This document shows, one piece after another, positions 49,353 through 64,000 of a stretch of 64,000 bases of DNA (position 1 is the stretch's first letter; each line of letters starts with the position of its first letter). The translations under genes were made by a program, and so were the position numbers. The notes under the pieces are model-generated. The model ran no database searches. It was not told the origin of the DNA and was given only the letters and a program-made list of their open reading frames with translations. Origin of the DNA: Botryllus schlosseri (lineage: Eukaryota); contig CM119372.1 of the NCBI GenBank assembly GCA_051294905.1, positions 31,126,001 through 31,190,000 on the forward strand. Reading direction: 5' to 3'.

Positions 49353-52300
49353 TCTGACTATATTTCCCACTCGGAAAATTCAATTTAGGTATCATATAAA
49401 TCAGAAGATAACAGGCTTTCCATAGAAACCAAAAGCAGTCCGCTACGACATATACATTTGGAGAAATCGAGTGATGAACTTGAACTTGGGTCAACAGTGA
49501 CCCCCCCCCATTAAAAGGGCTAAACAACAGCTCACTCAGCGATACTGGTAAATCCGATTACGTGGGCTGGAAGGATAAGAAGTGCATAGCGACATATATA
49601 TGCAATTACCACCTTTCCATCTATGCAATATTGAAGATTTTGGCGCCTAGGGCGATCAGACATACTTTGCTGACCATCGAAATCACGCGATGGGGTTCTT
49701 TGGGGCGAAGGCCCCAGAAGATTGGTTTATCACGCTATGGGTGCGCAAGACAATCGTTTTTTAGGGAGGGCTGACGAAATGCTGTTACAGCCCTCCCTCT
49801 TACCCATTGTCTTTTTTACAGTCCTTACAATATGTGGTACGGCGGGCGCTAGAGCACGAGAATTTTTGAAAGGGGGCGCTGGAGTAAATAAGGTTAAGAA
49901 CCACTGATGTGCACGATACCTAGGGACGATTCAGGCCACATTATCTCAAAATGCTGAAGAACATGCTGACTTTTTAGGTGTCACCAAATCGAATGTATCA
50001 ACTGGAACAATTAAATGCTATAATAATCCCATAAAATCGATATCGTCCATCACTTTGCCAACAATTTCGACGACAGCTTGCAAGGGAACATAAGCACGCC
50101 AGTAGTAGAATAGATCGGTCGTGACCTGGCAGGGGCTCTTATGGGTGCGGCGGTGACCTGCCTGAAAACCCGGGGTGATGACCCCACCCTTTTAGACCCC
50201 CCATGTGGTGGTGACCTGCCATTGTTTCTTCTGGGCGCGGTGATGACCCCACCCTTTCAGGTATAGGCTGTGGTGATGATATACCGTGAAAACTCGTGTT
50301 GGCGAGTCGTACTTCCGGGTATAGGCTGCGGTGATGACCTGCCGTCTCGTATTCGAGAGAATCCCAACGTTTAAGGTGAGCGCCACTTCGATATATCGTT
50401 ATTCTTATGGATGCGGTGATGATTCGTACTTTCGGGTATAGGCTGCGGGCGGAATGTCGTACTTTCAACAAAAAGGCGTGAAAATAGTTTGCAAAATCTA
50501 GGAATTACTCGCATGGTAATGTTTGGGTAATTAGTTTGCCACAGAGCCGGCGTAGACGGCGATTCGAATATCAACAATAGCCGCGTTCACATACTAACAC
50601 TTCAAAAAGGTGTGAAATAGTTTGCAAAACCCCGCCATCGCTGACGAGATAATGTCTCGGACATAACCATCTTTCGCGACTTGGTGTTACAGACATATCG
50701 ATCGCTCACGCGGTGAAATTTTAGTAAGCAGTTTGTCACAGAACTTGATTTCGCTCGTAAGATTTAATAAGTAACGAATAACAGACCGTCAGTGTCGGTA
50801 ACTTGAATAGCGACAAATTGTCACTTATTTCCGCTCTAACCCTAATCCTTTGTGAAGTGAACGCTTATTCAAAAAGGTGTGAAATAATTTTAAAATCCTA
50901 CGACCACTCACAGGGTAATGCTTCAGACATAGAGATCGCTCATGATTTGGTGTTACAGACATACCGATCGCTCACAAGGTAATATTTCCGCAATAAGTTT
51001 GTCACAGAGCCGTCGCAGACGGTGATTCGAAAACCAACAATTTGACACTTTCTGGTGGTCGCTATATGTTTTGACACTTCGGAACAGTGGCTGACTTTAG
51101 TTGTATGATAAGAATCATGAAAATATTCAATCAATGCGTTAGTTTGTCAACTTGAAATGAAACTTACTACACAACTCAAGTTGATTCGTATTTGAATGTA
51201 TTGATTCGACCCAACTCAAATCCTTTGACAAATCCTATTAACGCGATCTGTTGAATCGAACGTAACCCGAATATTCCATTACGCCGACTTTCGCCCGCAT
51301 CGCATTATTCACACATTCCGCATCGCTGTTTTCACACCTATAGAATCAATACCAACTAGCTCAATGAGAATCAGGAATAACAAGTATACAATAATTGTAT
51401 TTAATACTGAGAAATCAAACGCTTAACAAAAACACGCAACTAATCATTTGCCAACTCTAACTTTACCAAAAAATGCAGGTATTGTTGATTGAAAATCCGT
51501 GAGTCCTTATTATTACGAATGTTATAGTGTGGTGTCGGAATCAATTCGCGAGATGTACTAAAGGTAAATCCAAATAATCCAGAATGAAATATTTGGACTT
51601 TGACATAGTCTGAATTGAAATAAATTGACAAACATGACTACCAACTTTCAATCCAGTCATATTTAGAATTAGATTTGAAACAAGTAATGAAACCTTACAA
51701 CTCTATTCGCGACCTGTCTTTACGTTTGTCAAAGAGAGTTTCAGTAATTACTATCGCGATATTTTAATGTGTTACTACACACAATCGAGTCAGTCAATGA
51801 AATATCGCCAATTGTTGTAAACATTTCTAACTTGACAACCACTTGTGCATACCGCGATCGAGTTGTGACGCGATGAGTTAAATCGGAATATTTCAATCTA
51901 TTTGTCGATACCTTGAAAATGCTGTCTGGTTATTCTTTTTGTTGCAATTGAGTTAACGGAAATAGTATTACGTCTCGACATTTTAACATCTTACCATACT
52001 CCAAAGAGTCAACAAGTAAAAACCTTGACACGTAAATCCGTTTGTAACGTACAACACAACAGTATCCGTATGGAAAGTAGTCAAGATTACGCAAGTAATC
52101 GCTACAATCTAAAATCCATAGCAAGTTCGGTTGTAGTCATATACCGCCAACTCGTCTTTTTTGTTCAACTGTGAAAGTAATTACTACTCGGTATACCGTG
52201 TAACATAAAGTAATTACTACTCGGTGCACGCAACTTGAGATTGGCATATGTTGAGAATATACGACATTTGAAAGTCTGACCAACGTAGTTAAGAATCCAT

Positions 52301-62700: not shown

Positions 62701-64000
62701 TTCAATTCCTGTCACAACTCCGACAACAAATTGTATCAATTGCTGGATTCAATAGTAAGGACGTGTCATTGTGTCACTGACTCTACACTTAGTCGTTTCA
62801 ATTATCCGTTGCGAATCGGGATAATAAAGCATTTTGCATCGGGTGTTTAATGTATGAATAATGGAATAATTGCATCTTTCGCTGTTGTTTATCGCAAACG
62901 ATAGATTTTAATAATTGTACTGGTTGTTGAATGTAATAATACCGATATTGCTGTTTCATCTTTAGTCTTGGTTACTGGAAACAATTACATTTGTAAAATA
63001 TTTCCTGATATCGCGATACGCAGAGTGATTTTTATCGAGGGGGAGTAATTCTACAATCAAGAACATTTCAGACACGTATAGTTTTACAACTTAATATGTC
63101 AAGAACAATGGCACTGAAAAGTTTGTTGCTGTCATAACATTTACCACAACGCCGTGTCTAATTACCGCGAATAATTTAATAATCAAGTCTTGATCAACTA
63201 TTACATATGTCAAATCACTGTGTCAATCCTTATGTTTACATCATGATAATTTTCAATATAACGCCTGCGTTTGATCGTGAGAAATGGATTCTTAACTACG
63301 TTGGTCAGACTTTCAAATGTCGTATATTCTCAACATATGCCAATCTCAAGTTGCGTGCACCGATTAGTAATTACTTTATGTTACACGGTATACCGAGTAG
63401 TAATTACTTTCACAGTTGAGCAAAAAAGACGAGTTGGCGGTATATGACTACAACCAAACTTGCTATGGATTTTAGATTGTAGCGATTACTTGCGTAATCT
63501 TGACTACTTTCCATTCGGATACTGTTGAGTTGTAAGTTACAAACGGATTTACGTGACAAGGTTTTCCTTGTTGACTCTTTGGAGTATGGTAAGATGTTAA
63601 AATGTCGAGACGTAATACTATTTCCGTTAACTCAATTGCAACAAAAAAAATAACCAGACAGCTTGTTCAAGGTATCGACAAATAGATAGTAATATTCCGA
63701 TTTAACTCATCGCGTCACAACTCGATCGCGGTATGCACAAGTGGTTGGCAAGTTAGAAATGTTTACAACAATGGGCGATATTTCATTGACTGACTCGATT
63801 GTGTGTAGTAACACATTAAAATATCGCGATAGTAATTACTGAAACTCTCTTTGACAAACGTAAAGACAGGTCGCGAATAGAGTTGTAAGGTTTCATTACT
63901 TGTTTCAAATCTAATTCTAAATATGACTGGATTGAAAGTTGGTAGTCATGTTTGTCAATTTATTTCAATTCAGACTATGTCAAAGTCCAAATATTTCATT

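Follow-up and report, generated by a model that had tools for sequence, protein, structure and literature searches.

Left end and architecture of the palindrome

The 64,000-nucleotide stretch of DNA that was analysed (the window) holds in its first 18.8 kb a Polinton-type element, whose end at 18828, on the minus strand, reads AGTAGT. This element encodes an rve+chromo integrase, an A32 ATPase, a caspase-like protein and BIR proteins. Its major-capsid candidate gives a weak double-jelly-roll match (E=0.017), and the ORFs at 9343-13268, which we take to be polymerase-like, have no match in Pfam or PDB, so that this label rests on sequence motifs. The far end of the window is occupied by a large palindrome, and the window closes at 64000 inside its right arm.

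Upstream of the palindrome lies a host-side interspersed repeat (49992..50100, plus strand), a candidate target, which is 83% identical to 46790-46891 over 102 bp (49992-50093) and breaks off where the palindrome starts. The gap-poor alignment of the two repeats ends with ...ACGCC at 50100 and AGTAGTAG begins at 50101, which confirms the initial annotation of a MITE that stops at ...acgcc and is followed by an AGTAGT terminus. The AGTAGT at 50101..50106 (plus strand) is of the (AGT)2 type, and the available text of PMC8097293 defines the left end of Mavericks/Polintons as 5′-(AGT)2 or (AG)3. The last 6 bp of the flanking repeat (50095..50100, plus strand) form the predicted target-site duplication (TSD), of which the left copy alone is visible. 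The sequence at 50116-50133 agrees with the continuation of the intact flanking repeat at 14/18 positions (P ~0.005-0.016 in 40-60-bp comparisons) and also at 14/18 with the element's own repeat at 50207, and identity to the flanking repeat drops to background beyond 50133. Judged from the letters at this junction, 50101 is the likely left end of the element, and because 50116-50133 resembles the continuation of the flanking repeat the exact boundary is not proven. In the DNA-run comparison, none of the 24 loose contig ends listed, out of 3,216, lies at 50101.

Self-comparison revealed the inverted arms of at least 5 kb around an 800-bp spacer that had been described for this locus. The segment 51583-56641 is mirrored by 57436-64000 at 98.8% identity over 5,057 bp, and the two are separated by a unique spacer of 794 bp (56642..57435), the putative fold-back loop, which is present in all three of the DNA runs described below. 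The outer blocks (51583-55855 and 59728-64000) are 98.8% identical and the inner blocks (55848-56641 and 57436-58228) 98.7%. With an insertion in one arm set aside, the arm-versus-arm alignment spans 5,060 columns, of which 3 are gaps and 60 are substitutions, divided equally into 30 transitions and 30 transversions. The right arm, on the minus strand, consists of an inner part (57436..58228) and an outer part (59736..64000) that continues past the window; the outer 1,482 bp of the left arm are thus without a visible mirror there. Mirror arithmetic places the counterpart of 50101, where a right end of the Maverick/Polinton type would carry (ACT)2, at ~65482, so that each arm is predicted to measure 6,541 bp (left arm 50101..56641, plus strand, with 51583-56641 mirrored within the window). 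If the symmetry holds, the core would measure 13,876 bp, 94% of it palindromic, and the element together with its insertion 15,383 bp. The size of ~15 kb given initially agrees with the predicted total, although 1.5 kb of it belongs to the one-arm insertion, so that the core would be ~13.9 kb.

This insertion of 1.5 kb (58229..59727) interrupts the right arm only and is absent from the initial annotation. It is bounded by 15-bp terminal inverted repeats (TIRs; 14/15 matching) and by an 8-bp TSD at 58221-58228 and 59728-59735, and is presumably hAT-like, as assigned from the 8-bp TSD and the CAG start. Nested inside it is an older MITE (58788..59316), a relative of 34459-35047 (78% over 581 bp).

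The GC-rich repeats reported to follow the terminus were also seen. The subterminal region 50101..50450 (plus strand) carries repeated G[CT]GGTGA(TGA)CC-like motifs, with G[CT]GGTGA present six times in the first 350 bp as against eight times in the 50.1 kb before it with both strands counted, and the GC content is 0.50 in 50101-50600 versus ~0.35 in the arm; the region is a candidate origin or set of protein-binding sites. A second subterminal zone (50469..51041, plus strand) is built of two pairs of diverged direct duplications, 50601-50742 with 50868-51008 (76%) and 50508-50578 with 50971-51041 (82%), and contigs of three runs show a skip of 272 bp here (50670-50943). Near the inner end of the arm, TRF and self-blast identify a 41-bp tandem array of ~13 diverged copies (55305..55861, plus strand), which is mirrored at ~59730-60277. 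Apart from this array and the short subterminal repeats, the arm is largely free of repeats. The spacer may also hold two copies of the subterminal motif (57058..57119, plus strand), although the match is weak, its local score of 34 being reached by 2% of 500 shuffles.

Coding content and the spacer ORF

The longest stop-free frame in the palindrome has 121 codons, whereas the null median is 129 and 63% of 300 simulations reach 121; the same test applied to the Polinton control returns 428 codons. The 3-base periodicity is 0.90 in the palindrome, 1.08 in the host flank and 2.18 in the Polinton genes of the window. ORF lengths and codon periodicity are therefore at chance level, with the exception of a frame-broken 93-aa ORF in the spacer. 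The earlier statement that the palindrome has no recognisable ORF is borne out by the length of its longest frame and overlooked the spacer ORF.

A six-frame Pfam search with X at stops yielded nothing at E<=1e-3 (the best match, at E=0.0016, falls below the curated cut-off and was rejected) and brought up neither a Bcl-2 nor an SSB family, Rfam gave 0 matches over 49000-64000, and blastn and tblastn of the palindrome against the rest of the window gave nothing significant. A codon-usage scan returned weak segments only, with a best score of 6.6. Genes for a protein-primed PolB and a retroviral-like integrase were not found by ORF length, by Pfam or by tblastn against the Polinton genes of the window, and genes for an ATPase, a protease and a capsid were likewise not found in the palindrome. 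Without polymerase, integrase and capsid genes, the palindrome is not an autonomous Polinton. A candidate frame at 55933-56652 (plus strand; 240 codons with 3 stops) was rejected as a gene, being matched by 37% of null sequences; its matches are gene calls on sister copies (P0002 and P0003) and one unrelated repeat protein (E=1e-4). The ORF at 56281-56580 (minus strand) has no match in Atlas.

The spacer ORF (56742..57028, minus strand) is a candidate gene similar to the 93-aa predicted proteins P0001 and P0005. In tblastn, the minus strand from 57028 to 56742 aligns with P0001 in two frames, one with 86% identity across 65 aa and the other with 83% across 24 aa, the break lying near 56811-56816. 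The frame is open in two other records, P0001 and P0005, which form a cluster of 2 and come from short contigs. Two near-identical open copies are insufficient as proof, and we therefore treat the identity of this ORF as a gene as uncertain and lean slightly against it. A protein search with P0001 matches P0001 itself alone, Atlas scores are <=0.89 (low recognition), and no distant homolog, family or fold was detected at fold cut-offs of E<=0.001 or Z>=5; the single-sequence structure model is unreliable (pLDDT 43.6). Weak top matches to archaeal-virus proteins (E ~0.04) were not trusted, and none of the pattern hits for P0001 in metagenome (159) or viral (4) contigs was confirmed. In the RNA run X23, of which ~6% was sampled, 308 reads match the element on both strands, and 94% of these continue into unlike sequence; this coverage is too thin to judge expression.

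Copies in other sequencing runs and matching of the arms

Four of 24 runs were compared with 49600-57435, namely the DNA runs X1, X6 and X16 and the RNA run X23. X1 is possibly the source of the window itself, whereas X6 represents another sample and study and X16 is labelled as another organism. All 30 of the 30 bins of 49600-57435 are covered in each of the three DNA runs. Of the 159,639 contigs from X1, 39,737 are at least 99% identical to the window, 57,249 lie at 95-99%, 55,846 at 90-95% and 6,807 below, so that 113,095 of them are 90-99% alike; X6 and X16 contribute 9,097 and 2,175 contigs, respectively. This coverage of the left half and the spacer by contigs of three DNA runs shows that the palindrome belongs to a multi-copy family and did not arise in assembly, and the element is highly repeated and inserted into other sequence. 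The summed X1 depth of the arm bins is ~3.3 times that of the spacer bins, which is the direction expected for two arms per spacer and is not a measure of copy number. Gene calls from other records span the two arm/spacer junctions, P0002 on the left and P0003 on the right, in the same register as the window, and the spacer and its joints are thus features of the family. The terminal DNA pattern has 0 matches in metagenome contigs.

The relation between the two arms was followed at the best-supported 40 of 632 variant sites, on short contigs that are broken at variants, and 29 of these 40 sites fall within the mirrored arms. At 23 of the 29, both arms carry one letter that is unlike the reads; at five the right arm agrees with the reads, and one lies at an indel. 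The other letter is the X1 majority at 21 of the 23 arm-shared sites and accounts for at least 95% of X1 depth at 10 of them. Separate inheritance of the arms predicts two diverging lineages; instead, both arms carry changes that are uncommon in the family. The arms resemble each other more than they resemble most relatives, and subsequent changes in one arm have not been erased. The 60 arm-private changes are roughly evenly spread (chi-square p=0.06) with no clean conversion tract, the inner part of the arm (98.7%) shows no higher identity than the outer part (98.8%), and the 1.5-kb insertion has not been copied across. The combination of arm-shared letters at 23/29 sites with persistent arm-private changes points to matching during copying and not after insertion. 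These observations fit an equalisation of the arms at or before integration, followed by free drift.

Proposed origin, alternative explanations and known systems

We read the palindrome, with a probability of about 0.75, as an integrated member of a multi-copy family of non-autonomous elements dependent on Polinton/Maverick proteins, ~94% palindromic, with two predicted arms of ~6.5 kb and a 0.8-kb loop. The DNA runs, the AGTAGT and the lack of enzyme genes support the initial proposal in so far as it describes a foldback element that is mobile, non-autonomous and present in several copies, and whose left end is of the Polinton type. Since the visible end resembles Polinton ends and no intact gene is present, the element probably borrows Polinton enzymes. 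As had been noted before, the terminus is unlike that at 18828 beyond the six bases of AGTAGT (local score 26, null 27.5+/-4.2); no part of the palindrome matches the Polinton of the window in DNA or protein by blastn or tblastn, and that Polinton is, as also anticipated, no obvious parent or helper. This being the sole Polinton available, neither parent nor helper is identified, and the helper would be a Polinton family other than that of the window. The initial proposal would further have the palindrome descend from a Polinton in the manner of a snap-back genome; no homology to Polinton genes was found.

In the mechanism that we propose, a Polinton protein-primed polymerase would start at the AGTAGT ends and copy the element by strand displacement. 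The displaced strand would fold into a near-complete hairpin with a 6.5-kb stem and a 0.8-kb loop, recreating a duplex origin, and at this hairpin stage one arm may be corrected by mismatch correction, or re-synthesised on the other, with the effect of equalising the arms. The equalisation step is an added assumption, and panhandle replication by itself leaves the arms unequal. A Polinton integrase would insert the copy with a 6-bp TSD, and after insertion the arms would drift independently (1.2% here) and gather insertions. One end of an unseen parent may have given rise to the first such element through copy-back. A stricter version, which we consider possible but rather unlikely, is a true Polinton-virus satellite with a heritable copy-back genome, a near-complete ssDNA hairpin, a packaging-limited length and one small loop gene. 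For such a satellite, capsid packaging would hold the length near that of the helper genome, which would account for kilobases of non-coding filler.

Foldback-type transposons carry long inverted arms, with internal tandem repeats and modular TIRs, around a central loop. The palindrome could accordingly be a non-autonomous cut-and-paste element of this type, with long modular TIRs and moved by a DDE transposase, in which case AGTAGT would be a chance occurrence and the true end may lie slightly further in. The tandem and modular repeats of the arms resemble those of foldback elements, hAT-like elements are active in the region, and the flanking-repeat match at 50116-50133 would permit an end near 50134. 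The same 18-mer, however, fits the element's own repeat equally well (14/18), similarity stops directly after it, and AGTAGT sits exactly at the break of the flanking repeat. Foldback-type transposons are like the palindrome in their inverted arms, tandem repeats and loop, but have much shorter arms, transposase-type ends and TSDs of ~8-10 bp, and are not known to carry AGTAGT. Cut-and-paste transposition moreover lacks a step by which arms of 5 kb would stay more similar to each other than to their relatives, and on balance we regard this origin as improbable.

Matched arms might also be expected if the same element were equalised by host chromosomal gene conversion, through hairpin or cruciform repair, rather than by its own replication. 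Long, closely spaced inverted repeats are substrates for conversion, and arm-shared variants are predicted here as well. Efficient conversion should, however, produce long identical tracts, especially near the spacer, whereas the inner 794 bp are as diverged (98.7%) as the outer part (98.8%), and 60 substitutions along the whole arm as well as the 1.5-kb one-arm insertion persist; conversion as the source of the matching is distinctly improbable. That the palindrome is an artefact of assembly, or a local inverted duplication that happened once, is extremely unlikely. Palindromes are a known assembly hazard and no contig spans the whole stretch, but the differences between the arms resemble real mutations, an insertion flanked by its own TSD is confined to one arm, three DNA runs contain many variants of the arms and the spacer, and both junctions recur in other records.

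The preferred reading, a Polinton-dependent element copied through a folded strand, may be compared with several known systems. Kapitonov and Jurka reportedly described non-autonomous Polinton derivatives in 2006. Whole-element palindromic Polinton derivatives were not found in the literature searched, and Repbase or that paper may catalogue such families. Hairpin or palindromic derivatives of protein-primed yeast linear plasmids, extrachromosomal and not mobilised by an integrase, are said to have been reported by Kikuchi et al. in 1985. These forms offer a precedent for protein priming combined with fold-back and, being extrachromosomal, are unlike the palindrome.

According to the available text of PMC8097293, vertebrate Mavericks have (AGT)2 as their commonest end motif, 6-bp TSDs, TIRs of 46-1,447 bp and lengths of 12.7-24.6 kb. 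The palindrome shares with them the 5′-(AGT)2 at its visible end and a predicted size within the range (13.9-kb core), and its inverted arms are predicted to be terminal, as theirs are. Intact elements in that text have eight core ORFs, whereas the palindrome has no core gene, and its inverted repeat of at least 5,057 bp (predicted 6,541) compares with TIRs of 1,447 bp at most. Polinton remnants of C. elegans with 744-bp TIRs, as described in the accessible part of bioRxiv 10.1101/2024.01.15.575659, also combine Polinton-type ends with an incomplete gene set, but they keep recognisable Polinton genes and sub-kilobase TIRs, and none described there is a high-copy palindrome of the whole element. 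The portions available of that preprint and of PMC6431247, PMC3014272 and PMC4689423 describe no palindromic Polinton derivatives; foldback-type DNA transposons are mentioned in that of PMC6431247. In the accessible text of the tunicate genome papers PMC3699833 and PMC12448946, the words 'Polinton' and 'Maverick' are absent, and one of the two reports large gene-block palindromes, which are of another scale.

Snap-back or copy-back defective viral genomes, as presented in the available part of PMC13506859, resemble the palindrome in self-complementarity over nearly the full length (here 94% of the predicted core, with arms 98.8% identical), in little or no coding capacity and, probably, in reliance on the replication machinery of a helper. 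They are described there as short-lived by-products, chiefly of RNA viruses, whose sequence matches that of the parent. The palindrome, in contrast, sits in the genome, is inherited and has diversified; its loop is 794 nt long, and no available parent matches it. In adenovirus, protein-primed replication proceeds by strand displacement, and the displaced strand anneals its ends into a panhandle that serves as an origin (accessible text of PMC9863843). This fold-back of the displaced strand is a mechanistic precedent, although adenovirus ITRs of ~100 bp are unlike the arms of the palindrome. A single-strand fold-back replication model has been proposed for Polintons (cited in the available part of PMC4046053).

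Replication of Polintons is pictured as adenovirus-like, with protein priming and a single strand that folds, and the sources present this as a model. If the arms are re-matched at each mobilisation, this model becomes testable from genomes, through trees of left and right arms, and the family, with its many copies, would lend itself to the detection of extrachromosomal or packaged forms in an animal. Were the satellite reading true, the matched arms would be a direct genomic record of the proposed, unobserved Polinton fold-back intermediate; if the plain reading alone holds, the palindrome represents an unusual yet understandable family of non-autonomous transposons. Many palindromes of 14 kb should in addition affect the stability of the host genome and its assembly.

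Composition of the palindrome spacer and arms

The spacer that forms the loop between the palindrome arms (56642–57435) contains two further, weakly matching copies of the subterminal motif, the G(C/T)GGTGA-like repeat found by the left end, at 57058–57119. This pair lies directly upstream of the spacer's frame-broken minus-strand ORF (56742–57028), where it may serve as a promoter element or as an origin-like site inside the element. The arms are strongly strand-asymmetric at 53000–55600 and its mirror, with a GC skew as low as −0.22 on the outward-to-inward strand that is mirrored in the right arm, and no codon periodicity is observed in this asymmetric region or its mirror.

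A composite insertion in the right arm

The right arm carries a composite hAT-like insertion (58229–59727) that encloses an older MITE. The duplication flanking this MITE has decayed, and therefore the MITE and the hAT-like insertion were mobilised together. At 34459–35047 there is a relative of the MITE that is intact and has an 8-bp TSD.

Occurrence of the family in run X16

In X16, a DNA run labelled as a different organism, 2,175 contigs cover all 30 bins of 49600–57435, mostly at 90–99% identity, indicating either that the family is common to several species or that X16 contains Botryllus schlosseri DNA.

Other repeats and genes in the window

The flank broken off at 50100 belongs partly to a multi-kilobase repeat with two diverged copies (22316–23697 and 45349–47559; 71–77% alike). 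Integrase, A32 ATPase and capsid-like ORFs mark a Polinton-type element at 727–18828, the left TIR of which was not found within the 64-kb window; its polymerase-like region is divided into three separate ORFs (9343–13268), and three BIR (IAP) ORFs and one caspase-like ORF adjoin each other within it. A 489-aa minus-strand ORF with a NACHT domain (37847–39316) is probably a host NLR-like exon. Two small palindromic elements are also present, one at 39941–40537 (597 bp, inverted over almost its whole length) and one at 47–689, with tandem repeats between 141-bp arms.
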